A DNA stretch of 64,000 nucleotides from Spirochaetota bacterium (GCA_050298055.1 JBNKTL010000017.1:14920-78919), one strand, 5' to 3'. Shown: positions 28,892 through 51,443, counted from the stretch's first letter. The notes: generated from the sequence alone by a model not told the origin. Numbers and translations are program-made.

Positions 28892-28916
28892 ATGTACTCC
28901 TTTTCTATAAAATAAT

Positions 28917-28959
28917 ACTGATATCTCCCCGCCGCCGAAGGCGGCGGGGAGATATCAGT
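28917..28959. repeat. perfect 20-bp-stem hairpin related to the MITE central hairpin
   Basis: actgatatctccccgccgcc-gaa-ggcggcggggagatatcagt. Confidence 0.8.
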
Positions 28960-28964
28960 TACAC

Positions 28965-29561
28965 TTATTTCTCATTTAACGATTTTATAATGATATACTC
29001 ATTGCTGAAGCAGATCCTGCATATTGTGCCGTTGTCCACCTGGAAGTGCCACGACTTGTCCAGTGAATCCATCAGGTAATGGCCGATAATGGTCCTGATA
29101 CAGCCCCCGTGGGTTACCACCGCCTTTTTCCCGCTGCTCTTCTTTATTCTCTCAATTTCAGATATTACGTTTCTGCTCATGTCCCGGAAACTTTCACCGC
29201 CGGGTACGGGCCGGTTGATCCAGTCATCTCTCCAGCTGGCAAATTCATCCCTGCCTGAAGCCAGGACCTCTTTCCACATCTTGCCTTCCCACTCCCCGAA
29301 ATTCATCTCTCTCAGGTTCTTTGAGAATTCAATCTCTTGTTCGAAGTTGATGATCTCTGCTGTCTCCCTGCACCTTTTCAGGTCGCTGCAGTAAACCTCA
29401 TGGATCTCTTCACCTGCGAGGACCTCTTTCAGCCTCCCTGCCTGCTTTCTCCCGGTTTCGTTGATCCCTATGTCTGTATGACCCAGGAACCTGTTGTCCC
29501 TGTTGTAATCAGTTTCACCGTGCCGGATCAGTATCAGCTCCGTTGTTTTTTCCTGTTTCAT
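28965..29561 (-). CDS. cobC: alpha-ribazole phosphatase (histidine phosphatase)
   Basis: LIRHGET, SDLKRC.ETA, REMNFGEWEG, VTHGGCIR; within the cob cluster. Confidence 0.88.
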   Translation of the reverse strand: MKQEKTTELILIRHGETDYNRDNRFLGHTDIGINETGRKQAGRLKEVLAGEEIHEVYCSDLKRCRETAEIINFEQEIEFSKNLREMNFGEWEGKMWKEVLASGRDEFASWRDDWINRPVPGGESFRDMSRNVISEIERIKKSSGKKAVVTHGGCIRTIIGHYLMDSLDKSWHFQVDNGTICRICFSNEYIIIKSLNEK

Positions 29562-29586
29562 TTTTATTTTTCTAATACCTGAACTT

Positions 29587-29674
29587 CCCCCTTAAAAGTT
29601 CCCCCTAACCCCCTCAGGGGGCACAAGAGGTTTTTGGGTTAATATCTTTCGCCCCCTCTGGGGGATGGGGGGCC
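29587..29674. repeat. REP-like element
   Basis: ccccctaacccctcaggggg ... ccccctctgggggatgggggg. Confidence 0.6.
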
Positions 29675-29736
29675 GTTGGTGCGCAACCTGTGATCCTGCA
29701 ATTCACAATGAACCGGTCTCTGTGGCAAATCATTTT

Positions 29737-30492
29737 TTAATAAAAACCGAAGATCCTTTGAGAAAAGAGCATTGACGCGAGAAAAACCACCTCGGAGAGT
29801 TCAATGACAGCGCCCAGGATGTCTCCCGTTATGCCGCCGATTTTCCCCGATGCGTACCGCGTGAACAGAACCGCAAAGAGCGCCGGAAAGCTTATTGCCG
29901 GCAGGGCATTCATTCCCAGGAGAAGGTATCCCGGTGCAGCGGTTATGAGTACGGCGGCGGCTATCTCCCTGTACCCCGTATGGTCAATGGTTGATTTACC
30001 CATGCCGCTCTTCCGGGCGTATGATGATGTCCCGGCACTCCAGAGAATGTTCATCCGGGAGACAGCGGGCATCATGATTATTGTAAAGATAATGTTATCG
30101 CCTTTTAAGGAAATCATAAGCGCGATCTTCAGGATGATCAACAGGACAAGGCCCAGGGCGCCGTTGGTCCCCAGCCGCGGGTCTTTCATGATCTCAAGGA
30201 TCTCTTTCCCGGTCCTGTTGCTGAAGAGGCCGTCACATGTATCGGCCAGTCCGTCAAAGTGAAGTCCCCCCGTGACAATGATCTCAACCACTATGACAAG
30301 AACAATACCCGTATAAAAGAGATCCGTGTTAAGAAAGGGAAGAAAGACCAGTGCGGATACCAGGCCGATGATCAGTCCCACCAGGGGAGAAAGGACCATG
30401 CTTCTGGCAAAGAGGTCCTCGTCAAACTCCGGGTTTACCGGGAGGGGGATCCTGGTAAGGAAGCGAATCTGTAAAAAGAACCCTTTGAACAT
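29737..30492 (-). CDS. cobS: adenosylcobinamide-GDP ribazoletransferase
   Basis: FLTRIP, TGGLHFDGLADTCDG, IMKDPRLG, GGITGDILGA. Confidence 0.95.
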   Translation of the reverse strand: MFKGFFLQIRFLTRIPLPVNPEFDEDLFARSMVLSPLVGLIIGLVSALVFLPFLNTDLFYTGIVLVIVVEIIVTGGLHFDGLADTCDGLFSNRTGKEILEIMKDPRLGTNGALGLVLLIILKIALMISLKGDNIIFTIIMMPAVSRMNILWSAGTSSYARKSGMGKSTIDHTGYREIAAAVLITAAPGYLLLGMNALPAISFPALFAVLFTRYASGKIGGITGDILGAVIELSEVVFLASMLFSQRIFGFY

Positions 30493-31052
30493 TAATCGCC
30501 CTTTATCTTAAGGGGTATTCCGGAAACCAGCAGGTAGACCTCGTCAGCCATTGATGCCGCAAACTGGTTTGCCCTTCCGGCCATGTCCCTGAAATGCCTG
30601 CCCAGGGGCGTGGGGGGAACAACCCCCATCCCAATTTCGTTGGACACGATGAGACTTTCACCGGTGAAATGAACGGCCCCTTCCATGAGCATTTTCACTT
30701 CGCTCTCTATCATCTTTTCCGTTTCATGGACCGTGGCGGCATCGGTCCTTTCCCAGTTTATGTTGTTAATCACCATGAGGTTTGATACCATGATTGTCAG
30801 GCAGTCCAGGAGAATGTATCCGCGGCCGATGGCTTCTTCGGTAATGATATCTTTCAGGTTCCTGTATGCTTCAACGGTCTTCCAGTTCCTGTTTCTCTCT
30901 TTCCGGTGTCTTTTTATCCTCTCCTTCATCTCGCCGTCGAAGGGGAGGGCTGTTGCGATGTAGAGGACGTCGTTTTTCCCCTGAAGAAGAGACTCTGCGA
31001 AAGTACTCTTTCCGCTTCGGGCTCCTCCGGTTATGAATGTAATTTTACCCAT
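30492..31052 (-). CDS. cobU: bifunctional adenosylcobinamide kinase/guanylyltransferase
   Basis: TGGARSGKSTFAE, EMKERI.RH, LLDCLT, VSNEIGMGVVP. Confidence 0.95.
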   Translation of the reverse strand: MGKITFITGGARSGKSTFAESLLQGKNDVLYIATALPFDGEMKERIKRHRKERNRNWKTVEAYRNLKDIITEEAIGRGYILLDCLTIMVSNLMVINNINWERTDAATVHETEKMIESEVKMLMEGAVHFTGESLIVSNEIGMGVVPPTPLGRHFRDMAGRANQFAASMADEVYLLVSGIPLKIKGD

Positions 31053-31133
31053 GGATTTATCTTTTTAATTATCGGAAAGATTTAATAGATGGTACAATAG
31101 AGTGTAATAAAATCAAATAATGATACTCTTCAT

Positions 31134-31745
31134 TTATTTCAGATTCAATTTTTCAGCAACTGCTTTACTCATGCGATTAGCTATAATATGCTCGCAATAA
31201 TTAAAATTAAATATTTTATCCATATCCAGTACAAGGTATTCAAAGCTATAACCGTCAGGAGCATCAATGAGAACAGGAGCTGGAATTATATTGCATTCTT
31301 GCATCTTTTTTGCTACTGCTGGTTTTAAGAGACCTTCTGCAGCGGCAAGAAAAATAAGATGGTTAATGTCGCCCTGTTTTCCGTCATAGTCGTCACCTTC
31401 TTTATAAAACTCCTGAAATAATTTAAATACAGTTTTGGCAGCAGATGTAAACTTGGTAGATTTGCAGTTATTGTAATCAAATATACTGTAGTATTCCCAA
31501 TCAGCCGGACTGTATCGTAAATCATTGTCAGTTACAAAAGTTTCCTGGTTGACATAGTCTTTATCCTGACGAAAAGAAATTGCAAAATATTCCTGATAGG
31601 TTGATGGTATAATGTCTAAAGAAACTGCATCAATATATTCATTTAATGATTTTATTTCATCTTTATGTATTTCAAATAAATCCAAAATCCCATCTTCAAT
31701 GATTGGAATTAATTGCGAAATTTTATGTGGTAATTTAATTTTCAT
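31134..31745 (-). CDS. hypothetical acidic protein, possibly DUF4303/immunity-like
   Basis: AT-rich 203-aa ORF with RYSPADWEY motif. Confidence 0.5.
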   Translation of the reverse strand: MKIKLPHKISQLIPIIEDGILDLFEIHKDEIKSLNEYIDAVSLDIIPSTYQEYFAISFRQDKDYVNQETFVTDNDLRYSPADWEYYSIFDYNNCKSTKFTSAAKTVFKLFQEFYKEGDDYDGKQGDINHLIFLAAAEGLLKPAVAKKMQECNIIPAPVLIDAPDGYSFEYLVLDMDKIFNFNYCEHIIANRMSKAVAEKLNLK

Positions 31746-31889
31746 AGATTCCTTGCAATATATCAGAAGTCTTGATCTGACACTATTGTTGCCGTTTTAT
31801 AGAGTCAAGTGAATTATTGTTCGAGTCAGAGGTGCATGTTTGGACGTAAAACCACTTGAGTAGCCTGCCCGCCGCAGGCGAATCTCATG

Positions 31890-32777
31890 TCACTGTTTAT
31901 CAAGGATTTTCCCTTCAAGGGAAATAGTTTTTTTCCCCTGTGTATATCTTTTAAATACCATCTGTTTTTTATATGTATTGATAATAAAAAAGGGATCCCC
32001 GTCATCAATCGAATAATCACCGCCTGTTATTTCCCATGAACCATCCTTCTTATTAATTATTTTGCAGTTAAAAGCACCATCACCCAGCCAGCCGTAAATT
32101 CTGCTGTTTTTATAAAACAACCTTGCCCTGCAGAGATACTGGTTCTTTTCTTTCCTGAGCCATCCCACATCCAGGTCGCAGAATTGATCTGAAAAGCTTT
32201 TGGGAAATCCCGAACTTCGGATTATGTGAACTTTATAATCAGCGTGTTTCAGAACCGGGTTCCAGTCCGCCATGAACCAGGCAAAGACTCCAATCAAGAG
32301 AAATAAAAACAATGACAGCTGCCACATCCTCACAGGCCCTGTAATTTTTTTGTTATGACGGGGTGATTTAATATTTATGAGAGTAATTATTGCAAAAGCT
32401 GCTGCGCATCCTGAACCTGAAATAATAAACAGCAGGGCAGGCCTGTAGCTGTTTCGCTCCAGAAGAATCTGCGGTAAAAAATATATGAGGCTGAAAAAAA
32501 GAAGAAACCCTATGAGAAGATATACCAGTATGGGATAAAAATCATTATTAAAGTCAATCTCCGGTCCCTTCTTAAAGGGCGATACAGGCTGCATATTAAA
32601 AAGGATAATTGTGGAGTTGCCTGTGATGAAAGCGGTAAAAACCGATAAAACAACAGGAATGTAGATATCTCCTTTTGCGTAAAACACAAAATAGAAAGAT
32701 ATCCCTGCTGAAACGATAAAAAGGAGGATTAAAACAGCCCTTAAAGTTAAGGTAATATTTTTTCTTTTTTCCATCAC
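31890..32777 (-). CDS. hypothetical membrane protein
   Basis: About 5 N-terminal TM helices and a soluble C-terminal domain. Confidence 0.65.
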   Translation of the reverse strand: MMEKRKNITLTLRAVLILLFIVSAGISFYFVFYAKGDIYIPVVLSVFTAFITGNSTIILFNMQPVSPFKKGPEIDFNNDFYPILVYLLIGFLLFFSLIYFLPQILLERNSYRPALLFIISGSGCAAAFAIITLINIKSPRHNKKITGPVRMWQLSLFLFLLIGVFAWFMADWNPVLKHADYKVHIIRSSGFPKSFSDQFCDLDVGWLRKEKNQYLCRARLFYKNSRIYGWLGDGAFNCKIINKKDGSWEITGGDYSIDDGDPFFIINTYKKQMVFKRYTQGKKTISLEGKILDKQ

Positions 32778-32871
32778 GCTCTATACACTACATTTTGTAA
32801 ATTCTCTTAAATTAATCAAGCATTCTTCCTGTTCAAGTCATGTGAAAATTAATGTCGGCCGGTTGCTGTTA

Positions 32872-33387
32872 TTATAAAAGAAGTTTCCACTGGGAAAATG
32901 GTAACCACCTTGAGACGTTTTTACTGTAATCTTCCCATTCCCGGCCGAACTGTTCCTTTAAATAAGGCTCTTCGTATTTTATCACTCTCAAGTGGAATGA
33001 TATGAAAAGGATAATATCATAGAAAAAAAGAAACGGTGAGAAAAAGTATACGCACCAGCCAAAAACAGTGACAAGAACCCCTGTATACATGGGGTTGCGT
33101 ACATACCGGTAAAGACCTGAAATGATTAATCTTTTCGGCGGGTCCCAGGGCGCCAGGGTGCCTTTCCCGGTTATGAGGAAGTCACGAACGCACCATAACA
33201 GAATAACAGCGCCAACAAACAGTATGATTATCCCGGGAGTCAGATGACGGCCCTTCCAGGGGTCAAAACGGGCGATCAACGGGGGAAGCAACAGGGCAAA
33301 GATCCCGGGAAGTGAAACAAAGGCGATCAATGCCCTGATGAATATGTGAGATTCTGGATTCGATTTATTATTACCGGAATATTTCAC
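32872..33387 (-). CDS. isoprenylcysteine carboxyl methyltransferase/PEMT family protein
   Basis: GKGTLAPWDPPKRL...GLYRYVRNPMY, EEPYL...FG..W.DY...V.RW. Confidence 0.9.
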   Translation of the reverse strand: MKYSGNNKSNPESHIFIRALIAFVSLPGIFALLLPPLIARFDPWKGRHLTPGIIILFVGAVILLWCVRDFLITGKGTLAPWDPPKRLIISGLYRYVRNPMYTGVLVTVFGWCVYFFSPFLFFYDIILFISFHLRVIKYEEPYLKEQFGREWEDYSKNVSRWLPFSQWKLLL

Positions 33388-33405
33388 TGGGTATATTCGC
33401 TCTAT

Positions 33406-34107
33406 TCAAAGATTTTTTTGGGAAGAAAAAATTTTAATTTCATTATATCTGTTTAAGGACAGATCATAGTATTCGACCAATGATATTGTGTTAACAGAAT
33501 AATCAAATTTTCTATTGTTAATAATCCATTGATTCAAATATAAACTGGCATTGTTTTTTGCTTTTTCTGTAATTCTTTTAAAATCTATAAAATGACCCAG
33601 AACAACAGTACAGGTAAACAACCTGTTACCGTCAATTGTACCCTCTTTTATCATTGCTCCAAGTCCCTTTAAAAAAATTCTCATGTACGGTATAGCCCTC
33701 TCATTTATTAATACAATCTGTGTTGTTCCTGCTGAGCTGCTCTCAATACTTTTAAATGTTAATGAGAAACCATCATTGAGATAAAGGGATAAAAACCGGT
33801 CTAGTAATTTATAGTCACTGTCTAACCATGAACTTCTGTGCATTTTTAATCTCAATTGGTCATTAACAATATCTGTATAGGGCAGTTCTTTTGAAAGGAT
33901 TGTTGAGTGATGGTTCTCCTGATTTTGAAAACAATCACCAAATATTTCTTTTAAACCCAAAGATAACTCATTAAATTTATTTTTATATTCGGGAAAATAT
34001 TTCCAGTCAACTATAAAGCTTTGACCATAGACATCAGTAGATTTATTATACTTAGTCTTTTGGCAAGCTTCTTCATTTAGCGAGTTATAAAATTTATTTT
34101 CACTCAT
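33406..34107 (-). CDS. 2H-phosphoesterase-like protein (second motif degenerate)
   Basis: HST first motif (NHHSTIL), FSLTFKSI, TVVLGHF at the position of HxTL.RF, VNTISLVEY. Confidence 0.5.
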   Translation of the reverse strand: MSENKFYNSLNEEACQKTKYNKSTDVYGQSFIVDWKYFPEYKNKFNELSLGLKEIFGDCFQNQENHHSTILSKELPYTDIVNDQLRLKMHRSSWLDSDYKLLDRFLSLYLNDGFSLTFKSIESSSAGTTQIVLINERAIPYMRIFLKGLGAMIKEGTIDGNRLFTCTVVLGHFIDFKRITEKAKNNASLYLNQWIINNRKFDYSVNTISLVEYYDLSLNRYNEIKIFSSQKNL

Positions 34108-34369
34108 AAAGTTTGTTTAAAAAAACAATATTTTCCTTTCATTTATTATAACAATATAAAGATCCCGTCAAATTAAAAATATCAAAAAAAAGTATTATAT
34201 CAGGCTGGAATAATTATTCCTATAACCAGATATTATTAATAATAAATATATATTGTTAATATCCCGCATCTTTTAGAGTCCAATTTAGAATTTTTAAAAT
34301 TATGTTTGATTTTTTATCTATTATATTTTCGCATTAATTAAAATAACAGGTAAATAATTATAAATTCCT

Positions 34370-35359
34370 ATGCTATACTCGAAAACACCGGAAAAACTAC
34401 TGAGGATACCAATCAGTAATAAATGTAATTATGAGTGCACTTTTTGCTGTTGGAACCATAAACCGTTCAATCCTATTAAACTCCTTAATCCCAATGATTA
34501 CAATATACTGGTTCAGGCTGCAAATATGACAGGTTGTACCCGGATAATGCTTACAGGGGGCGAACCACTTCAAGTCACCAGTAATAATACTAAAGAACTT
34601 TTTGATATTATTAAATCTATTTCTTCAGTTAAAGGTTTGACCGACTTCTGGCTGCTTACAAATGGCTTTTATCTTAATTCAAGTAAGTTAATCAGTGATC
34701 TAAAACAGGCGGGATTAAAAAAAGTTGTTGTTTCCATCGGAGCTGAATCAAATAAGAAATATAAAGAGTATTCGCAAACAGAATATGATCTTGATACAAT
34801 CCTTAATAATATTACCCTGGCCATCAGGGGTGGTATGCATTTAAAGGTTGATGTACCACTCTCCAGGAGTGGAATAAAAAATTATGATGAACTCTTGGTC
34901 CTTATTAAAAAACTGGAATATCTTGGTGTACCGGAAGTAGCCTATTTTAAACTTCATAAAACAGCCGAAAACATAGAGGTTTACGATTCATTATTCGTTG
35001 ATGTCGAGAGTATTACTGAAGCTTTCAATGAGAGTGAATTATGGGATCTGAATGAAGATGAGGGGAAACTGAGTTTTTCAAATGGGAAAATCAGTGTTAT
35101 TATACCGGCGGCAATAGAGTATAGAACCACCAATTGCGATGAAAACAGTTGTGGGCCCTATTGTCAGGGAATATATGCTGCCTATCTGGTGTCAGAAGAA
35201 GACAAGACTTTTATCAGGGCTTGTCACCATGAATTTAAGGATAAAAGGAATGAATATATAATCGGGAACTGCAAAGGCCTTTTTGCAAAAGAAAAGATCA
35301 TAAAAATATTTCGAGATGTCTGGATATATGCATATGGCGAAAATGATATTATTCTTTGA
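34370..35359 (+). CDS. MoaA-like radical SAM protein with C-terminal Cys cluster
   Basis: LRIPISNKCNYECTFC (CxxxCxxC), LTGGEPL, LTNG, C-terminal C....C...C...IRAC. Confidence 0.88.
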   Translation: MLYSKTPEKLLRIPISNKCNYECTFCCWNHKPFNPIKLLNPNDYNILVQAANMTGCTRIMLTGGEPLQVTSNNTKELFDIIKSISSVKGLTDFWLLTNGFYLNSSKLISDLKQAGLKKVVVSIGAESNKKYKEYSQTEYDLDTILNNITLAIRGGMHLKVDVPLSRSGIKNYDELLVLIKKLEYLGVPEVAYFKLHKTAENIEVYDSLFVDVESITEAFNESELWDLNEDEGKLSFSNGKISVIIPAAIEYRTTNCDENSCGPYCQGIYAAYLVSEEDKTFIRACHHEFKDKRNEYIIGNCKGLFAKEKIIKIFRDVWIYAYGENDIIL

Positions 35360-36137
35360 CCTGGATGATACCCTCATTGAGAATGCAAAATATTTTGATA
35401 CTGTCAAAAACAATGTCGCAGAGGAATGCCGGAAAAAGGGAATAGAAAAATCAATCAATGAATTAAAACTCTATTTTGATGAGATTGAGAATAAAAACCA
35501 TAAGAAATATGGAAAAGGGAAGGATAATTTTAGAAGGTCTTTAAAAGAGGCATGCAGGACATTTGCGAATATCTCAGTTGGAACTCTCATTGATGAACAG
35601 GTCGATTGGCTTGAGAGCAACCTCTTTACACCGATTTACGGGGTCGGAGAGACACTTGAGGCCTTATCAGAATATTTCCCGATACTCTGTGTTACTCATG
35701 GGAACCCGCAAGAACAGATAAATAAGATAGAACGGTCTCACTTGAGCAGGTTTTTCAATTTTAAAGATAAATCTTTAGTGATACTGGAAAACAAAAGCAG
35801 AGAGCAATACTCAAATCTTCTTGAAAGTTTAACGTATGATCCGGAATATGCAGTTATGGTAGGCAACAGTCCGAAAAAAGATATTAACCCTGCAAAAGAA
35901 GCAGGAATGATAACGGTATTTATACCGAGTAAACACACCTGGCACATGGATGATGAAGATATATCCGGAGGAGATCCTCCAACACTGGTTGCTTTTTCCA
36001 TAACTGACCTGAAAGATCTTTTTATGCCCTCTTTCAATTTAAATAAAGGAAATAGATGTATTTCATATAACAGCACGGAAAAAAAGATTAGATACAAAGA
36101 CACAAGCGGCAGAGATAGTACTTTTATAATTCAATAA
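35334..36137 (+). CDS. HAD-family phosphatase
   Basis: FFDLDDTL (motif I), VTHG (II), K (III), VGNSPKKDI (IV); overlaps the radical SAM stop; start uncertain. Confidence 0.88.
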   Translation: MAKMILFFDLDDTLIENAKYFDTVKNNVAEECRKKGIEKSINELKLYFDEIENKNHKKYGKGKDNFRRSLKEACRTFANISVGTLIDEQVDWLESNLFTPIYGVGETLEALSEYFPILCVTHGNPQEQINKIERSHLSRFFNFKDKSLVILENKSREQYSNLLESLTYDPEYAVMVGNSPKKDINPAKEAGMITVFIPSKHTWHMDDEDISGGDPPTLVAFSITDLKDLFMPSFNLNKGNRCISYNSTEKKIRYKDTSGRDSTFIIQ

Positions 36138-36155
36138 CCTTAGAAAAAGAATTAC

Positions 36156-36770
36156 ATGATGAGAAAAGTTCTTATCATTACCGGTGGTAAAAATCCCGGC
36201 CATCCGATAGAAGCTCGAAATATTGAGATCTTTCAGGATATCTATGGTGATACTACTGAAATATCATCAATTGACCTCTCTGAGCTTTCAGTGAGAAAAC
36301 TTGATGAGTATAATAATTTTATTTTTTTCACATCCCTTGAAGGTGCAAATAACCAGATGCTTAATCATATTTTAGACAGGTCAGGCAAGCATTCCTGGTG
36401 CATGGTTTTTCTCCATGAGGCTGCAATTTTTAACAGGGACAACCATGCATTTTACCGATTCCTGGGGGTCCGGTTCAAGGAGCACTATGAATACGGCTCC
36501 TTTACGGTCAAGACAGAACGTTGTCCTGTTACAGAAGGTATTGGTGAAAAATTTATTATTGATGACGAATTATACTTTTTTGAAAAGCCGCTTAATGGTT
36601 CCGGTTCTTTTGTTTTCTGTTTTTCAGAAAAGAATGCTCCCCTGGGATTCATAAAAAATGAACAGCCAGGAGGAACATTGATCTATATCGCCCTTGGCCA
36701 CAATAGAGGGGCATTTACGAACAGAGAGTACAGGCGGATGCTGAAAAATTGTGCCGGCTATTTCATATGA
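36156..36770 (+). CDS. ThuA-like domain protein (class I glutamine-amidotransferase-like fold)
   Basis: VLIITGG..GH, FLHEA, LG.RF.EH, PVTEG...F.I.DELY, YIALGH. Confidence 0.8.
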   Translation: MMRKVLIITGGKNPGHPIEARNIEIFQDIYGDTTEISSIDLSELSVRKLDEYNNFIFFTSLEGANNQMLNHILDRSGKHSWCMVFLHEAAIFNRDNHAFYRFLGVRFKEHYEYGSFTVKTERCPVTEGIGEKFIIDDELYFFEKPLNGSGSFVFCFSEKNAPLGFIKNEQPGGTLIYIALGHNRGAFTNREYRRMLKNCAGYFI

Positions 36771-36787
36771 TTAATATTGGAGGGGAT

Positions 36788-39700
36788 ATGGGCAAGTATA
36801 TTAAGGACAGCAGGATTCTGGATGAAGAGGATAAAAAAACAATATTGATTTTTGATGCCGACGATACGTTATGGGAAAGTTCAAAACATTGGCGTGATAT
36901 AAAAATTGATATTGCCCATGAAATCATCAATGTGCTTTTCAAAAACAAAAACAAAATCGTTATGGATTATTTAGATTTGGCAAAAGAAAAACTTAAGGAG
37001 AACAGTGAAGAATTAAAAATTGATTTAAAAGATTATCTTAGGAAACATGAATTAAAAAGTTTTAAAAATAGTATAAAGGAGAAAATCCTCATTGATAGAA
37101 TACAATTATACATTCAACAAGATGATAAAACCGAATATATAAAAGAGTTTATCGTGTCACTTGAAAAACTTGTAATAGATAAGTATGATAAGGATTCTTT
37201 TAAGATACTCATTGAACTCTTTATAATATATTTCAATTTCAGGGAGGAAAAAAATCATAGCAACAAAGCACGCGGCATCGATAATTTCAGAACAGTGTTG
37301 TTAGAAATTGTCAAAGAATTATTTGATGAAAATGATGAAATAATATGGATTGAATCTTATGTAAATAAAAAAATTCATGAGCTTGAGTCTATTAGATATA
37401 CAGCAAAGGACGGTGTGAGATCAGCTCTTTCAATTTTAAAAAAAACACATCACCTTGCGATATTGTCCCAGGGAAGCCCCTATGAGATTAATTCAAAATT
37501 GAAGACGAGCGGACTCAATGTTTTTTTCGATAATAATAATATAGTTTTAGATTTTAATAAAAATAGTGATTTCAAAGAGTTAAAAAATGAAATTCCTCAC
37601 ACTAAAGAAATCTTCTATATTGGGAACAGCCTTAAAAATGATATATTACCGGCATTTAAAGCTGGATTTCGAACCATTTTTTATCCCAACAGCAACACAT
37701 GGATAAATGATGATGTTGTCGATAATGAAAATTTTACAGATATCAAAACCTACCTCATACGAACTCCCATGGAGATTATGAGCATTGTAAATATTAAAAA
37801 CGAAGAAAAGCTAAAGAAATTGCTAAAATATGATTCTCATACAAAAACAATCAAATACCTGGAAAACGGTAAAACCAATGAAATTACCATTTATAATTTC
37901 TGCACCCAGAAGGGCTTAATTTTCTGTATTGGCGATTTTATCCATGAAATGTTCGTAATACCCAAAAGTATAGCATATGAATCGGTGCGCCGCCACTCTG
38001 AAATTCACAGGGGTACTGAAAACGATATTTTACCGATTCAGCAGTATGGGGGGGCAATGCTCAGTCAGAGTTTATTAAATGTTTTAAATACCGGTGAAAA
38101 CGAATATATTGTTAAATCACCGCCCTGTATTGACGTCAACCAGGCTGAAAGGCTTTATCCGTGGCAGACAGGAACAGTAATAGACAAAGAGAATAAAGAC
38201 AGGCTCTACAACCAGCAGATATTCTATCTGAAGAAAAATCAATTTAATGATAACCTTATAGAAAACGGATCAACTTTTCGTGTCGAAACGCTGCTTACAA
38301 GGACATATGCTGAAGATATATATGCCAGGTTGTATAAGTGTATAAAAAACCATAACGACAAAGGAAAACTTGAAACAAAATTATCTGATTTTTTTGATAA
38401 TGAGTCATCAATGAACAGCATTCTTAATAAATGCAATAATGATCTATGCATTCATAGTTGTGAGAGAAATTCAGCAGAACATAATAAAAACGGTTTAATT
38501 GAAAAGCTGTCAAGAGAACTTTCAGATAGGTCAGAGGGAAAAACCCAAGATGGTATTCTCTTTAACATATTTAAAAAGAACTTCAGTTGCTACCATTATA
38601 AAAATTGTGATGACCAATTAGAAGATATTTCTTCTCTGTACAGTAATAATGAAAATAGTTACCTGGTAATTGATTATTTTTCGGATCAAAATAGAAATAA
38701 AAATAAAGATAACATCGCAATCAAAAAATTATTTGAGAATAAAGAGATTAATAATTTTAATACAATTTTCATTAAATGCAACGATCCCATTGAAGCAATT
38801 ACTTTGAGTTATAAAATTGATAACATCTGGATAATCGGCAATATAACAAACCTCTTTAATAAATCAGGTACACATTATTATTCATGGGAAGCGCTTATTG
38901 AAGCAGTAATCAAAGAGCTTGAGACATATGAAAATGGATCAATTATTAAAGTAGAAAATTGCTTCAATCTTGTTCTTCTCTGTAAAAATGAAGGATGCAT
39001 ATATATTGAAAAGAAAAGAAATGAAAATACATTTCATATGCATACCTTTATTGATCCATTCAATCAATACGGCACATTCTCTGCCAGTAATTATGGATGG
39101 GTTGCCGGATTTCAGAATATATTCATCACTAAATTTGTCCATTCATTTGTCTCAGAAAAGTCAATCGATCATGTTAACAGTGTCGGGGATGCCTGGAAAT
39201 ATGCCAGGGCTGTTTTTCTCCTTGGTTACGGTTCAATAGAATTGATAGAGAATAATGAAATAGATAAAATACCCTCACTAATACCGGTTGCGGAAAACTT
39301 GAAGACAGTGAAAGAGATCATGACCAAATGCGATGAGGAATTAACCGACTTTGAAAAAAAATTCAGAGACTATGTTCAAGATGTTCTCCAGTATAGTGTC
39401 AATGTGGACATGAAAAGAGATGATCAAATGTTCCAACAAGAAGGAAATGAAGGTAAAGTGTACCATTATTCTAAAAACTTTTCATTACTCTGTAAATACC
39501 GGCTTTCCTTAAAGCAGGCGTTTATTATCTCTGAAAAGATCATTGAATTAGGCCCCGATGCATTAAATAATGATATATATTTTGAACCTGGGAAGGAACC
39601 AGATAAGAAGATTAGTTTCAGGATACCTTTTTTAAAAATCGGCAACCATATATCGATATTCAGAAAAGAAATCGAAGAGGTAAACCTGATATATACTGTT

Positions 39701-40666
39701 ATACGCGATTATGTAAAAAGAAAAACAACAAAGCGTCCGCTTTCTATCGCGGTCTTTGGTGAGCCCGGTTCAGGGAAATCGTTTACTGTTACCCAGATTG
39801 TAAAAAACCTGCAGGGGGTCAAAAGCGAGATCCTTGAATTTAACCTTTCCCAGATGTATTCACTCAATGACCTTATGGAAGCCTTTCACCTGATCCAGGA
39901 TGCCGGACAGCGTGACAGGCTCCCCGTTGTTTTCTGGGACGAATTTGACTGTGAATTCAACGAAAATATCTTCGGGTGGCTTAAAAACTTTTTAGCGCCC
40001 ATGCAGGACGGTATGTACCTGAAGGACGGCAAAGACCACTATTTCGGCCAGGCAATTTTTATTTTTGCCGGTGGCATATGTTCAAATGATATTGTCTTTA
40101 AAGCTCTTAGGGTTGCAAAACAAGACGTTAATAAATATCTTGCTGATACATATCAAGATATTGATGGAGAGATACTAGAACAATATGCCCGTGAAGCAAC
40201 TTCAATTTTAAAAGACATAAATTCTACGAAGATCAAAACCCTGAAATTACCGGATTTTATCAGCCGGCTAAAGCTCACCTATACGGTCCCGACAAGTAGG
40301 ATTAGTGATTTAAACAAAAAAATTTTTAACACAAGTGAAAATATTAATGATACAAAACTGGAGGGCAAGGAAGCTGCAATTATCTTTCGCAGGGCAAGTC
40401 TCATCAGAAACCAACTGGCAAGCCATGCCGGACACCTCAAGACTATGGACTTTAAGGCCTTTCATCGACTGTTGCTCTCAGATAGATATGCATGTGCCCG
40501 TGATCTTGAAAGCGCCATTGAGGCAAGCACCCTGGCAGACGTGGAAAACTTCGGACTCAGCGCCCTTCCATTGTCTCAGGAAAGTGACAATGAAATTAAG
40601 TTAAACAAATTAGTAATAGACTATGGTAAAAAAGAGATTACTTTGAACAACCTTAACCGGACCTGA
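36788..40666 (+). CDS. multidomain HAD phosphatase / PfkB-like / P-loop ATPase protein
   Basis: GGAGG RBS; IFDADDTL...IGNSLKNDI (HAD); CIGDF...GGAML (PfkB-like start); PLSIAVFGEPGSGKS and VFWDEFD, LAPMQDG, IFIFAGG. Confidence 0.85.
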   Translation: MGKYIKDSRILDEEDKKTILIFDADDTLWESSKHWRDIKIDIAHEIINVLFKNKNKIVMDYLDLAKEKLKENSEELKIDLKDYLRKHELKSFKNSIKEKILIDRIQLYIQQDDKTEYIKEFIVSLEKLVIDKYDKDSFKILIELFIIYFNFREEKNHSNKARGIDNFRTVLLEIVKELFDENDEIIWIESYVNKKIHELESIRYTAKDGVRSALSILKKTHHLAILSQGSPYEINSKLKTSGLNVFFDNNNIVLDFNKNSDFKELKNEIPHTKEIFYIGNSLKNDILPAFKAGFRTIFYPNSNTWINDDVVDNENFTDIKTYLIRTPMEIMSIVNIKNEEKLKKLLKYDSHTKTIKYLENGKTNEITIYNFCTQKGLIFCIGDFIHEMFVIPKSIAYESVRRHSEIHRGTENDILPIQQYGGAMLSQSLLNVLNTGENEYIVKSPPCIDVNQAERLYPWQTGTVIDKENKDRLYNQQIFYLKKNQFNDNLIENGSTFRVETLLTRTYAEDIYARLYKCIKNHNDKGKLETKLSDFFDNESSMNSILNKCNNDLCIHSCERNSAEHNKNGLIEKLSRELSDRSEGKTQDGILFNIFKKNFSCYHYKNCDDQLEDISSLYSNNENSYLVIDYFSDQNRNKNKDNIAIKKLFENKEINNFNTIFIKCNDPIEAITLSYKIDNIWIIGNITNLFNKSGTHYYSWEALIEAVIKELETYENGSIIKVENCFNLVLLCKNEGCIYIEKKRNENTFHMHTFIDPFNQYGTFSASNYGWVAGFQNIFITKFVHSFVSEKSIDHVNSVGDAWKYARAVFLLGYGSIELIENNEIDKIPSLIPVAENLKTVKEIMTKCDEELTDFEKKFRDYVQDVLQYSVNVDMKRDDQMFQQEGNEGKVYHYSKNFSLLCKYRLSLKQAFIISEKIIELGPDALNNDIYFEPGKEPDKKISFRIPFLKIGNHISIFRKEIEEVNLIYTVIRDYVKRKTTKRPLSIAVFGEPGSGKSFTVTQIVKNLQGVKSEILEFNLSQMYSLNDLMEAFHLIQDAGQRDRLPVVFWDEFDCEFNENIFGWLKNFLAPMQDGMYLKDGKDHYFGQAIFIFAGGICSNDIVFKALRVAKQDVNKYLADTYQDIDGEILEQYAREATSILKDINSTKIKTLKLPDFISRLKLTYTVPTSRISDLNKKIFNTSENINDTKLEGKEAAIIFRRASLIRNQLASHAGHLKTMDFKAFHRLLLSDRYACARDLESAIEASTLADVENFGLSALPLSQESDNEIKLNKLVIDYGKKEITLNNLNRT

Positions 40667-40882
40667 CAGTGTAAATGATCCGCGGGAAGAGCCATCCCCG
40701 ACTGCGCGGTTCCTGGACCGATACTGTCATAAAACCGGTTTTATCTATGAGGCCCGACATATCTTTTTTTTCAGCCGGGAGTGAAAAAGCCGGGAAGCTG
40801 GTTTTCAATTTATCGAATGTTTTATGAATCTTAGCGTTGAATTTATATTGACAGTTATTTTTTAGGAACCTAACATGGAGAT

Positions 40883-41788
40883 GTGATGTGGCATATCTCT
40901 TCTCTGACTGCGTTTTTAATTATCATAACACTTGTTCCTGTGAGTGGCGCGGAACCGGCTGCTCACAGAAGCACGCAGAAGCAGGTTGAAGCTGCCGGAA
41001 GCCTGCTGAAGATCATTTCCCTTGTTCCCGGAGAAGGGAAGCCTGTAAGCGGCAGGTCGATGCTGAAGGCAGAGGTTTCGGTTGATATCCCCGGATTTAC
41101 ACCGGATGATCAGTACCTGCTTCGGGTCTACATGAGGAGTATGAAAAAGGGACAGCCGGGGAAGTACTTTGTGGACACCTATGATATTACGTCACGTAAA
41201 AATCATATGTACATCATTGTTCCCATTAACAAAGTCCTGGGAGGTTTCGGGAAGGGTGAGGTGGGTGTGGACTTTTCAGTGGCCCGGAAAAAGAGGGGCC
41301 TTTACGCACCGCTGCATATTATGACAACGGTTACAAAAAAGTATATAAACACCGGGGAGGGGATCTCCCCGGAAAGCCGGAGAATCAACTGGGAGAGAAG
41401 AACGGATTCTTTAGACACGGGGAATGATTCCTTCGGCAATATCGAACCTGTTGTCATGAAGATCCGGGACCTGAATAAAACTGCCGGTTCAACCATCCAG
41501 CCCGGCGGGGAGATCACCGGAACCGTGGATTACCGTATACCCGGGTATTCAGGGACCCGGCGGTACATCATCTACCTCTATGAGATCACAGGCGGCAATT
41601 ACCGTCTGGTCAAAAAATTCCGCATACCTTCGGGAAGCGGCAGCATTCCCTTCAGCTATACCTCTCCTTCCGGGGGAAGAGGTGACGGGGATTTAACCAT
41701 CAGGTTCGTGGTGAACAGGTACTCACGGATGGGCTTTCTCCCCGTCTTTACCTGTGATGCCGTCCGGTATAGGACCGGGAAGCATTAG
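40883..41788 (+). CDS. secreted hypothetical protein with two Ig-like repeats
   Basis: Signal peptide; two similar beta-rich halves (V..DIPGF / VDYRIPGY). Confidence 0.6.
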   Translation: MMWHISSLTAFLIIITLVPVSGAEPAAHRSTQKQVEAAGSLLKIISLVPGEGKPVSGRSMLKAEVSVDIPGFTPDDQYLLRVYMRSMKKGQPGKYFVDTYDITSRKNHMYIIVPINKVLGGFGKGEVGVDFSVARKKRGLYAPLHIMTTVTKKYINTGEGISPESRRINWERRTDSLDTGNDSFGNIEPVVMKIRDLNKTAGSTIQPGGEITGTVDYRIPGYSGTRRYIIYLYEITGGNYRLVKKFRIPSGSGSIPFSYTSPSGGRGDGDLTIRFVVNRYSRMGFLPVFTCDAVRYRTGKH

Positions 41789-42217
41789 TCTGCCGGCGGC
41801 TCCCGGAGGGAGGTGCATACCGGGCCGGGGACTGCTCCCGTATCCCGGCATTGTTTTTTTACCTCTGTAAAATTCTTCTTTTTCAACCGCGCATCGTCAA
41901 AATGGGCTCTTCCCGTAAGCTTAATGGGATGATGCTCTCTCTCCGGTTTAATTAAAGTGAAGCCGGTAAAGTCCCGTATAGTCACGGCTCTATATATACT
42001 TGTTGACAGAAGGAATACCGGATATATACTGCCTGGAGAATCAGCGAACATTTTATTATTACAATTATCGGTACAATTTATTTGTATTTTGCCTTCCTGA
42101 GGTAACTGTCTGGAATAAGTTACCAATCATTTGAGTAAAAATTAAATTTGTAAGCCCTCTGAATATTGTTTTCTCTCAATAAGCCGTTTATGTCATGAAC
42201 AGTAAAATTGCATATAA

Positions 42218-43366
42218 ATGAATATACTTCAGATAGCCACACTGAACCGGCCCATTAAGCAGGACCTGGGTTACGGCCCTATTGAAGCGGTTATTTATAA
42301 CATTGATAAAGGTCTGCATAAATTGGGTCACCGTTCTCTTGTTGCCTGTTCCGGTGATTCAAAAGTTTTCGGAGAACAATACTCCACCATAGAGAAGAGT
42401 TTCAGTGAATACCACAGTACAAATACCCGGGAACAGCGGAAAAATATGCGCAGGCATCTTCTCCTCTCCCTTGAAAGGGCGAAAAAGTGTGATATTGATA
42501 TCATCCATATACATGACGCCGCCATGGTTGAATATATTTTTAACGGAGTTGTTAAAAGTCCTGTTCCCATTGTGATGACACTCCATGTGCCTGCAAAAGA
42601 CAAAGGGCCATTCAGGCTGTGGAATGAGTCGCTTATTTCCACTTCCCGGGTGTTTTTTGTCCCGATCAGTGAATACCAGAAAAAACAACACAATGGATTA
42701 ATGAACATTCAGAATGTTATCCACCACGGTATTGATGTGGAGGACTATCCCTTTAAATCTGGCTCCGGTAAACAGGAATATCTGTTCTCCATCGGAAGGA
42801 TCACAAAGGATAAAGGGCAGGATATCGCAATCGAGATCGCGAAAAAAACCGGCAACCGGCTCATCATTGCCGGTAATGTTCAGAACAAAAAAAAAGACAG
42901 GGCATTCTTCAACAGTATCATAGAATCAATCGACCTTGTGACTGATCTGCCTGAACCCTGTGACGATAACGACTATTATGAAAAGATCATGAAACCGATT
43001 CTGGATTCGGATCACCAGATCATCTATATCGGAGAAGTCAATACCGCCCGGAAAATGCTCTGGTACATGCATGCAAAGGCGACGCTTTTTCCCATACAAT
43101 GGGGAGAACCCTTCGGGCTTGTGCTGATCGAATCAATGGCCTCCGGTACGCCGGTTGTGGCCTTCAATAAAGGCTCGGTGCCTGAAATTGTTATTCATGA
43201 AAAAACCGGTTTTGTGGTAGATTCAATAGATGAAATGGTCAATGCGGTGAGTGAGATCGGTATTATCAAACACCATGACTGCCGAAGTCACATTAAAGAG
43301 AATTTTTCAATTTTAAGTATGGCTGAAAAATATTCAGAGCTGTATCAATCTGTTATGGAGAAGTAA
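42218..43366 (+). CDS. glycosyltransferase family 4
   Basis: YGPIE, IHHGID, GRITKDKG, PIQWGEPFGLVLIESMASGTPV. Confidence 0.92.
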   Translation: MNILQIATLNRPIKQDLGYGPIEAVIYNIDKGLHKLGHRSLVACSGDSKVFGEQYSTIEKSFSEYHSTNTREQRKNMRRHLLLSLERAKKCDIDIIHIHDAAMVEYIFNGVVKSPVPIVMTLHVPAKDKGPFRLWNESLISTSRVFFVPISEYQKKQHNGLMNIQNVIHHGIDVEDYPFKSGSGKQEYLFSIGRITKDKGQDIAIEIAKKTGNRLIIAGNVQNKKKDRAFFNSIIESIDLVTDLPEPCDDNDYYEKIMKPILDSDHQIIYIGEVNTARKMLWYMHAKATLFPIQWGEPFGLVLIESMASGTPVVAFNKGSVPEIVIHEKTGFVVDSIDEMVNAVSEIGIIKHHDCRSHIKENFSILSMAEKYSELYQSVMEK

Positions 43367-48023: not shown

Positions 48024-48992
48024 TTAAATATGTATATTGATGCCGGCTAAGCCGGCATTTATTTTTGCATATTCAGCTTTAAAAAGCCTGTATCCAATAA
48101 ATAATTCCAGATGTTTATATGAAATCCCAAGTCTTGATTCAAAGTCTATGAAATTAATATATTCGAAATTTATAGCACCATATTTTATAATGAGAGAGAA
48201 AGGCTTTACTGGGTATGATTTTATTTTAACACCATACGCAACTCCATTTCTTGACAGGATACCCCTGAACATGGCTCTTTGAATATAAAAGTCAGGTGAA
48301 ATATAATCATTTTGAAATACCGGTAAATTAATTCCCAAGGCATAATAATCTAAATGATCTTCATCATCCTTTATTCTCAATAAATCGATCTCCGGACCAA
48401 TTATTTTCCAAAACCGACCGGTAATTTTGCCAAAATATCCGGAGCCATTTTCCTTTGTCCGTAACCCGCCGCCATTTATTGAATAATAATAATTCTTATA
48501 TGTAGTTGTTTCCTTAAGTGATCTGGAAGGTTTTATATTGTCCGTTGATTCAAGAACATCTTTTTGTGTGTTTTTATCAACAAGAGAGTATGTATTATCT
48601 TTTTTTTGAATTGTTTTTAAATGTGATGATGCAGAATTCGCATTTTCATCATTTTTATCAGAAAAAGAAATATCGGTGATTTTATTTTCTTTTTTCTTAA
48701 TGTAGTTTACAAAGTGTTTATCAAAATTTTTGTTATATGGGTAATCTGAATAATAGACACTAAAATTATGCATTGCCCATAAAAGAAAAACGACTTCAGA
48801 AATTTCACCCAGTATATCTCCCAGACATCCTCCATCGGAACTACTTGATGAACTTCCTTTTTTCCTTTTATTTCTCCTTTCCTCTTTTTTTACGTCATCT
48901 TTAAAATCCTTAAGAGAAGCCAGAATAATATTATGAGTAAAAATTATTGTAAAAATAAGGAGAAATGATAATAATTTGTTTTTTCTTTTCAT
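48024..48992 (-). CDS. exported hypothetical protein, probable C-terminal beta-barrel
   Basis: Signal peptide; amphipathic beta strands; AT-rich. Confidence 0.6.
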   Translation of the reverse strand: MKRKNKLLSFLLIFTIIFTHNIILASLKDFKDDVKKEERRNKRKKGSSSSSSDGGCLGDILGEISEVVFLLWAMHNFSVYYSDYPYNKNFDKHFVNYIKKKENKITDISFSDKNDENANSASSHLKTIQKKDNTYSLVDKNTQKDVLESTDNIKPSRSLKETTTYKNYYYSINGGGLRTKENGSGYFGKITGRFWKIIGPEIDLLRIKDDEDHLDYYALGINLPVFQNDYISPDFYIQRAMFRGILSRNGVAYGVKIKSYPVKPFSLIIKYGAINFEYINFIDFESRLGISYKHLELFIGYRLFKAEYAKINAGLAGINIHI

Positions 48993-50297: not shown

Positions 50298-51443
50298 ATG
50301 AGTAAATACCCCCATATACAATTTCGGAAACACTGGCAAATCGGAAATTCCTGTGCGTATCAATTAGGTGAATGTTCCGCTTTAATTCAGGCTCTCTCAA
50401 ATATTCCTTTAAAACCTGAATATAGATCAAAATTATTACAGGTATCACTGATAAAAGGAGCGCAGGCAACAACTGCTATCGAAGGAAATACTTTAACTGA
50501 AGAAGAAATTGAAAAGATTCAGGAAGGGTGGAAACTTCCTGAAAGCCGGGAATATCAGGAAAGAGAAGTAACAAATGTTATAAATGCTTTTAATGAATTA
50601 TTAAAAGAAATAATAGAAGAAGAAAAGTTAAGAATTATTACGCCGGATACCATAAAAACTTTTCATAAGATGATTGGAAAAAATTTAGGCAAACATCTGG
50701 ATGCTATACCCGGCAAATTCAGAACTGACAGCCGTTTTGTAGGTCCTTACAAAACACCGGACCATGAAGATATTCCTGGGCTAATGGAGGAATTATGTAC
50801 CTGGTTAAAAAAAGAATTTCATTTTGAATCGGGGCAGGATTTTCCCACAGCGGTCATTCAGGCTGTTGTGACACATGTTTATCTGGAATGGATTCATCCT
50901 TTTGGAGACGGTAACGGACGAACAGGAAGACTTCTTGAGTTTTATATCCTGTTACGTGCGGGACTTCCGGATATTGTTTCTCATGTCCTATCAAATTTCT
51001 ACAATAAAACAAGACAGGAATATTATCGCCAGCTGAGAAATGCAAAAGAAAAAAATGATTTAACTTTTTTTATCGAATACGCTGTTAAAGGATTTCGTGA
51101 CGGTCTTGTTGAAAATCTTGATATTATACAGGAAAGCCAATTGTATACTTTTTGGCATAATTATATTTATGAAATTTTTAGTAATTTAAGATATACAAAA
51201 AAGGAAGCTTTTAAAAGGAAAAGAGAATTAATTCTTCAGTTGCCAACTGACAAATATTTATCAACTGATGAAATGACGATGACAACTCCCCTCATTGCCA
51301 AAATGTATTCTCAAGTCAATAAAGTAACGGTATTACGTGATATAAAAGAATTAATTGAACTAAATCTTCTGAAAAAAGAGGGGAGAAAATATAAAGCAAA
51401 TATTGAAATATTGCGTACCATGATCCCCCTCAAGAAACAATAA
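50298..51443 (+). CDS. fic: Fic family AMPylase, class II, with probable C-terminal HTH
   Basis: HPFGDGNGRTGR catalytic motif; TTAIEGN autoinhibitory motif. Confidence 0.92.
   Translation: MSKYPHIQFRKHWQIGNSCAYQLGECSALIQALSNIPLKPEYRSKLLQVSLIKGAQATTAIEGNTLTEEEIEKIQEGWKLPESREYQEREVTNVINAFNELLKEIIEEEKLRIITPDTIKTFHKMIGKNLGKHLDAIPGKFRTDSRFVGPYKTPDHEDIPGLMEELCTWLKKEFHFESGQDFPTAVIQAVVTHVYLEWIHPFGDGNGRTGRLLEFYILLRAGLPDIVSHVLSNFYNKTRQEYYRQLRNAKEKNDLTFFIEYAVKGFRDGLVENLDIIQESQLYTFWHNYIYEIFSNLRYTKKEAFKRKRELILQLPTDKYLSTDEMTMTTPLIAKMYSQVNKVTVLRDIKELIELNLLKKEGRKYKANIEILRTMIPLKKQ

Follow-up and report, generated by a model that had tools for sequence, protein, structure and literature searches.

The window analysed here, a 64,000-nucleotide stretch from a Spirochaetota bacterium (GCA_050298055.1, JBNKTL010000017.1:14920-78919), contains at positions 33406-40666 an AT-rich block of five genes, centred on a radical S-adenosylmethionine (SAM) enzyme and a ThuA-like protein. 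A reading made from the sequence alone (hereafter the sequence-only reading) had proposed that the five genes form one undescribed system, which makes, senses and removes a modified nucleotide or sugar-phosphate. The features of the block are as follows.

33406-34107, minus strand: 2H-fold gene, 233 amino acids; first HxT motif H67-S-T69, second motif T-C-T
34108-34369: divergent spacer, 262 bp, 18.7% G+C
34370-35359, plus strand: MoaA-derived radical SAM gene; CxxxCxxC intact, C-terminal cluster motif C..C-x3-CQGxYAxY..RxCH; conserved core, part 1
35334-36137, plus strand: free HAD gene, subfamily IA phosphatase; motifs DLDDT, T, K, GN..D
36156-36770, plus strand: ThuA-like gene of a dedicated subfamily; motifs GGKNPGH, TSLE, HEA, DE, GH; conserved core, part 2
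36788-40666, plus strand: giant gene, HAD + pseudo-PfkB + AAA+, 1292 amino acids
36842-37666, plus strand: HAD domain of the giant protein; Pfam Hydrolase 5e-7; motifs DADDT, S, GNSLKND
37913-39409, plus strand: ribokinase/PfkB-fold domain of the giant protein, by fold match; AGFQNIF at 39104 in place of GAGD
39629-40603, plus strand: AAA+ ATPase of the giant protein; Walker A GEPGSGKS, Walker B WDEFD, putative Arg finger and sensor-2

The open reading frames, their spacing, the AT-rich composition and the divergent spacer of about 260 bp are as the sequence-only reading described them. The radical SAM and free HAD genes share 17-26 nt, according to which ATG is taken (35343 or 35334), with gaps of 18 nt between the HAD and ThuA-like genes and 17 nt between the latter and the giant gene, whose likeliest start, ATG 36788, is preceded by a GGAGGGG site. 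The domain assignments likewise held: Pfam recognises Radical_SAM (1e-12), HAD_2 (6e-12), ThuA (5e-16) and, in the giant protein, Hydrolase (5e-7) and AAA (2e-4), and the 2H and PfkB calls, which received no Pfam support, were confirmed on predicted structures. As that reading also stated, no moa gene lies within the block; it had expected no named defence system, and neither PADLOC (v2.0.0, including Thoeris) nor NCBIfam gives one, the five genes showing weak domain-level matches only. The block has 34.0% G+C against a genome mean of 44.4%, a value equally low in 4 of 593 windows of the same size. A single contig of 12,180 bases from run X1, possibly the source sample, covers 28945-41124 with 0 differences; thus, as far as this comparison goes, the block is no assembly chimera. 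Run X2, from the same study, also covers the block, but in fragments.

The radical SAM protein has MoaA as its best named models, scoring 89.9-91.4 bits against NCBIfam equivalog cut-offs of 284-325, and MoaA (1tv7, E 1e-26) is also its nearest solved relative, closer than the viperin structures. The viperin model NF038283 gives 32.9 bits against a cut-off of 180, and the match to the PADLOC prokaryotic viperin (pVip) profile (E 2e-10) is limited to the barrel. Searching proteins of comparable length recovered 7 full-length relatives at 39-45% identity, followed by a gap down to ordinary MoaA (30 matches in total), while a search of longer proteins recovered 13 full-length relatives situated behind a SIR2_2 domain and a domain of ~190 amino acids (53 matches in total). 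In a tree of 34 rows, with viperins outside it, 25 subfamily sequences (12 unfused, including two near-copies, and 13 SIR2-fused) separate from 9 MoaA rows with support of 100/100; given that two differing searches supplied the fused and unfused sequences, the ratio of 13/25 should not be taken as unbiased. The equivalent of R17 of MoaA, the guanine/3'-OH arginine, is kept as R12 and is invariant with the MoaA rows. The CxxCxRxR motif (R266/R268) and the C-terminal GG, in contrast, are each seen in 0/25 members against 8/8 MoaA controls; the available text of PMC9026282 describes both as essential in MoaA, with the GG not kept in archaeal MoaA. CQGxYAxY and [RQ]xCH are present in all 25 members, and the host has a canonical moaA (contig C15) as well as moaC (C3). 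From the low scores, the missing CxxCxRxR and GG, the separate clade and the host moaA located elsewhere, it appears that the protein is not a molybdenum cofactor enzyme but represents a separate family, which by its sequence features is MoaA-derived, rare and undescribed.

Scanning 185,579 species genomes for orthologues gave 24 loci, 4 of them full-length: L004 (Desulfobacteraceae), L005 (Deltaproteobacteria, SIR2-fused, on a 3-kb contig), L006 (labelled Methanosarcinales) and L007 (Desulfatiglandales). At all three of the other loci that are unfused and have flanks (L004, L006 and L007), the radical SAM gene adjoins a ThuA-like gene of 30-40% identity, which at L006 carries an additional radical SAM/SPASM domain as a fusion. 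In leave-one-out profile comparisons these partner ThuAs score 153-202 bits, far above the 37-56 bits of 5 generic ThuAs, and they thus constitute a subfamily of their own. The stable core is this pair of a radical SAM enzyme and its dedicated ThuA-like protein, and not all five genes. Co-occurrence elsewhere had been set beforehand as the test that could refute the five-gene system: orthologues of the 2H protein, the ATPase and the HAD phosphatase were not found in the four genomes that hold a radical SAM orthologue (with the host genome, G000, as positive control), and the five-gene combination was found at no other locus across the genome, metagenome, viral and plasmid scans. As the four genomes are incomplete, these orthologues are to be called not found rather than absent. 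The metagenome scan gave 46 loci with 0 full-length radical SAM orthologues, the viral scans gave none for the radical SAM or 2H proteins, and the plasmids yielded no full-length radical SAM orthologue and no match to the 2H, ThuA or SIR2-linker queries. Within the host's phylum the radical SAM protein is found in 0/300 genomes and ThuA in 7/300, as generic matches of ~50 bits only; a set of 300 genomes from the phylum of genome G041 yielded neither the radical SAM protein nor the partner ThuA.

Beyond the ThuA-like gene the neighbours vary by locus, with sugar kinases, nucleotidyltransferases, Nudix proteins and further radical SAM enzymes as their common theme: a CofD/YvcK-nucleotidyltransferase and a 1247-aa ROK-Nudix protein at L004; two radical SAM enzymes and a xylose-isomerase barrel at L006; and PfkB, ROK and a B12 radical SAM enzyme at L007. 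The nucleotide or sugar-phosphate theme of the sequence-only reading is supported. The operon at L004:4483-15341 comprises the CofD/YvcK-nucleotidyltransferase fusion, a 520-aa HExxH protein, a 317-aa protein, the pair and the ROK-Nudix protein. L006:6225-12940 and L084:4109-14825 belong to a 1.8-Mb genome labelled archaeal, with four radical SAM domains in five genes and a further radical SAM cluster ~20 kb upstream.

The SIR2-fused relatives (P0168-P0180 and L005:466-2916) are proteins of 807-934 amino acids with the order SIR2_2, ~190-aa domain and radical SAM. The SIR2 domains of the 13 fusions retain GAGxS, TTNFD and HG, and the best PADLOC models for the fusions are SIR2 effectors in 3/3 tested (E down to 1e-29). 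The ~190-aa middle domain has no match in genomes G000, G041, G043 and G044 or in PHROGs, and in the PDB a weak TRAP match only. At L007 a MADS-like run (mad2/methyltransferase, mad5, SspF-like, mad7, DndH/mad8) is 4.7 kb away from the pair, and LmuB-like, PDC-S01 and PDC-M19B genes are within 20 kb. The conflict link that the sequence-only reading had drawn is supported by the 13 SIR2-fused relatives and by this one homologous pair in a defence island. Stretches L082:11564-19952, L007:1-4179 and L083:2054-11645 contain defence genes and a D5-like primase round the L007 cluster, an island on a likely integrative element. The one published system that came up for SIR2 together with radical SAM, HXS (PMC13128918), is unrelated according to its available text.

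The C-terminal two thirds of the giant protein fall in a family that databases name 'RyR domain-containing protein' (283 proteins, E<=0.001), the best 120 of the 283 matches being listed and aligned. The PfkB-like and AAA+ core is shared with this family at 26-36% identity (best RyR-bearing match 2e-43). A RyR domain ends 109 of the 120 aligned rows and 5 of the 120 have a SLOG-like tail by motif; the giant protein has no RyR, and no RyR match occurs in G000. Its closest relative among the matches listed, P0002 (E 1e-75 vs 2e-43 for the next), is likewise RyR-less and has a Ham1 pyrophosphatase where the giant protein has HAD; the two join at 100/98 on a long branch when 36 of the 120 rows are placed in a tree, which carries a long-branch warning. 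By these alignments the giant protein is a RyR-less offshoot of the PfkB-like/AAA+/RyR family, from which it also differs in its added N-terminal HAD domain and its setting in an enzyme operon. P0002, with Ham1, pseudo-PfkB and AAA+, lies on an 8-kb contig; P0103 and P0113 are PfkB-like AAA+ proteins without RyR, and P0103 continues, by eye, straight into a SLOG-like tail. Phage RyR domains bind or cleave the cyclic ADP-ribose signals of Thoeris (10.64898/2026.05.28.727677, 10.64898/2026.06.04.730250, in their available parts); the main texts of both, in the same parts, mention neither 'PfkB' nor 'ATPase'.

In a model of residues 386-1305 (mean predicted local distance difference test score, pLDDT, 71; part of the middle domain <50) the middle domain assumes a ribokinase fold (3hic, Z 13.9, root-mean-square deviation 4.6 over 270 aligned residues; 2awd, Z 13.5; VIA-align), and the ATPase is closest to the second nucleotide-binding domain (NBD2) of ClpB/ClpA and to sigma-54 activators (Z 14-16), with Walker A and Walker B intact. 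It was the fold search alone that showed PfkB: hhalign gave a probability of 0.2, ESM was blank and the PDB profile search was filled by RyR. PfkB kinases contain a GAGD anion-hole motif with the catalytic Asp. This is replaced by GFQN (AGFQNIF) in the giant protein and mostly by GYT[ST]C in the family, where G[AC]GD occurs anywhere in 4/119 rows, the register being set by eye. Given this replacement, the domain is probably a ligand-binding pocket, likely that of a catalytically dead pseudo-kinase, and no normal kinase; of the two general roles that the sequence-only reading gave for PfkB folds, to bind or to phosphorylate sugars and nucleosides, the second is therefore not sustained. A STAND/NLR-like sensor ATPase was considered and rejected: the nSTAND and AAA_16 Pfam models are below cut-off, the top folds are Clp NBD2 and sigma-54 activators, and there are no repeats. 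The ATPase has 0/300 matches in genomes related to the host and the giant protein 1/40 in host relatives, in its HAD part only; the viral scan gave 4 loci for the ATPase, one being a full match on a conjugative-element-like contig without the partners.

The free HAD protein contains all four motifs (DxD, T/S, K and GN..D) and matches 3ddh (E 3e-18), with the cut-offs of the HAD substrate subfamilies YjjG and CTE7 not reached; it and the HAD domain of the giant protein are mutual best matches in the genome (31% identity). For the 2H protein, a model with pLDDT 91.5 finds in Foldseek the Appr>p cyclic phosphodiesterase 1fsi on top (E 5e-5), the 2'-5' RNA ligase-like 1vdx and ATU0111 (2fsq, TM-score 0.59), and its ESM features indicate PF08975. 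2H phosphoesterases possess two HxT/S motifs. The 2H protein shares with this superfamily (Appr>p cyclic phosphodiesterase, LigT, DUF1868) the fold and the first HxT motif, but keeps the first catalytic His only: an invariant Thr replaces the second, the motif being TxT in 11/11 aligned rows (position from sequence and secondary structure), and it has invariant K, T, Y and D residues of its own. This weakens a part for it in the removal step of the sequence-only reading. The protein has 15 relatives. The one other 2H locus found, in 1/300 genomes (G212), has none of the block's partners. From these features the protein is probably a passenger or a ligand binder outside the conserved unit. The G212 relative (L095:9937-10743) has a C-terminal zinc-ribbon-like tail and lies in a prophage-like region.

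We tentatively propose that the four plus-strand genes are a horizontally acquired operon built round a pair that makes a modified sugar-nucleotide, and that this pair is coupled to a sensor ATPase, most likely as a conflict module in defence or signalling. The radical SAM-ThuA pair probably makes an unusual sugar-nucleotide, given that relatives are fused to an NAD-cleaving SIR2 domain or set among sugar-nucleotide enzymes; that product may be used in defence. The radical SAM enzyme, assigned by family and motifs, would abstract hydrogen at the sugar moiety of a nucleotide or nucleotide-sugar, in a reaction unlike that of MoaA on GTP, and the SIR2 fusions make a substrate derived from NAD or ADP-ribose plausible. 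The ThuA-like partner could then convert an oxidised or rearranged keto-sugar-type intermediate, as the link of ThuA to 3-keto-sugars suggests, and the free HAD, with its intact motifs, might dephosphorylate the product or a precursor. In the architecture of the giant protein, product bound in the dead PfkB pocket would switch the AAA+ ring, acting on some target, and the protein's own HAD domain might clear the ligand.

By analogy, such a mode of working would be most like that of a viperin with linked nucleotide enzymes, though the enzyme itself is not a viperin. Prokaryotic viperins modify nucleotides for anti-phage defence and are often linked to nucleotide-handling genes, according to the available text of 10.1101/2023.09.13.557418; the radical SAM protein resembles them in being MoaA-related and differs in its Cys-rich C-terminal domain and in having no adjoining nucleoside monophosphate kinase. 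With MoaA (1tv7) it shares the barrel, CxxxCxxC, the R17 equivalent and C-terminal cysteines able to hold a second cluster; unlike MoaA, it has no R266/R268 or GG tail, its C-terminal Cys residues are spaced otherwise, with CQGxYAxY and RxCH, and its gene has ThuA-like or SIR2 partners in place of moa neighbours. ThuAB forms 3-keto-disaccharides (PMC8121099, in its available text); the ThuA-like protein has the same fold and Pfam match, but belongs to a distinct subfamily, has a radical SAM enzyme as partner and is accompanied by no Gfo/Idh/MocA dehydrogenase or sugar transporter. The likeness to Thoeris and other systems of SIR2 and NAD-derived signals resides in the defence-type SIR2 on the radical SAM relatives and in the RyR and SLOG domains on the ATPase relatives; the block itself, unlike these systems, has no TIR, SIR2, SLOG or RyR, and any signal here would come from radical chemistry.

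Several observations weigh against a conflict module of this kind. Since the ATPase, HAD and 2H orthologues were not found in the four other genomes, core and sensor are seen coupled a single time, and the neighbour pattern rests on few cases, as only 4 loci have context. The SIR2-fused genome G042 has no ThuA match, the host genome no SIR2_2 match, and the flanks of L004 and L006 no defence island; three plasmid relatives of the ATPase are solo genes without such enzymes, one of them near a SIR2 gene and a transposase. The block has neither a recognisable effector nor RyR and is flanked on the left by cobT/cobC/cobS/cobU-type genes and on the right by a glycosyltransferase and GH15, and PADLOC on 15 window proteins (the other open reading frames of the window were covered by the Pfam scan) gave one strong match, to a Fic protein 9.6 kb away. 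The pair could instead tailor a sugar or nucleoside destined for a secondary metabolite or envelope glycan, with no part in defence, the giant protein being a regulator or clean-up enzyme. We regard such a purely biosynthetic cassette as rather unlikely: the L004, L006 and L007 clusters do abound in kinases, nucleotidyltransferases and additional radical SAM enzymes, 2/3 of these loci are outside defence islands and ThuA is tied to 3-keto-disaccharide metabolism in the paper cited above, but the 13 SIR2 fusions and the very patchy, low-GC distribution speak against it, and a transferase, exporter or scaffold enzyme with which to complete a product is lacking from the block.

A mosaic, in which the pair was acquired separately from a conflict ATPase and from a 2H gene, both solo, and the three are neighbours by chance in a variable region, would account for the pair and ATPase being joined at no second locus, for the solo ATPase relatives on plasmids, for the unrelated second 2H locus and for the low-GC, unrelated genes that run leftward of the block to 31134. 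We nevertheless consider it unlikely, because the four plus-strand genes overlap or are at most 18 nt apart, the two HADs are each other's best match, and at L004 another giant protein of sugar-kinase fold and pyrophosphatase, ROK-Nudix, occupies the same slot after ThuA. As for a second MoaA for molybdenum or tungsten cofactor synthesis, the best named models and the retained R17 equivalent point that way, but the shortfall of its 91 bits from the cut-offs, the absence of CxxCxRxR and terminal GG from all 25 members, the separate clade and the host's own moaA and moaC on other contigs make it very improbable indeed. Thus, what stands of the sequence-only interpretation is its domains, theme, conflict link and lack of a named system, whereas the five-gene unit does not, removal by 2H is weakened and PfkB as a normal kinase falls away.

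In the literature searched, with most subscription papers outside it, we found neither the radical SAM-ThuA pair described, nor fusions of SIR2 with radical SAM, nor the PfkB-AAA+-RyR family. The cassette is real, rare and undescribed, smaller than the proposed five-gene system, and its link to NAD chemistry is testable. The MoaA-like branch that it defines is unstudied, and its chemistry can be approached from two sides, through the ThuA-like protein dedicated to it and through the fusions to an NAD-cleaving domain of defence type. Three questions can thereby be addressed together: the role of ThuA-like proteins, the action of radical SAM enzymes on NAD-derived sugars and the ligand sensed by the widespread dead-PfkB AAA+ proteins. 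If our proposal is true, it would add to viperin another path by which MoaA-like enzymes came to serve chemical defence. A bolder extension, which we think improbable, is a new class of nucleotide-signal immunity with a radical-SAM-made second messenger or chain-poison from a sugar derived from NAD or ADP-ribose, in which SIR2 fusions would feed the radical enzyme, the ThuA-like partner finish the product, dead-PfkB AAA+ proteins serve as receptors and HAD, Ham1 or Nudix enzymes act as off-switches.

Around the block, the scan for promoters and terminators was at chance (44 promoter-like sites in 31000-42300 vs 41.2 +/- 6.4 in shuffles), and no tRNA was found in the window. An ICMT/PEMT-like methyltransferase gene (32872-33387, minus strand) follows the 2H gene after 18 nt and has a higher G+C content at third codon positions (GC3), 0.51 vs 0.27; it gave no close match in 40 host relatives (0/40), and consequently no empty insertion site was mapped. 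Many loose-ended contigs are stacked over two short intergenic stretches, 28909-28961 and 29601-29643, which mark a repeat with many copies in the sample. The Fic protein is encoded at 50298-51443 on the plus strand (PADLOC SoFic, 4e-67) and adjoins an AT-rich stretch at 48024-48992.

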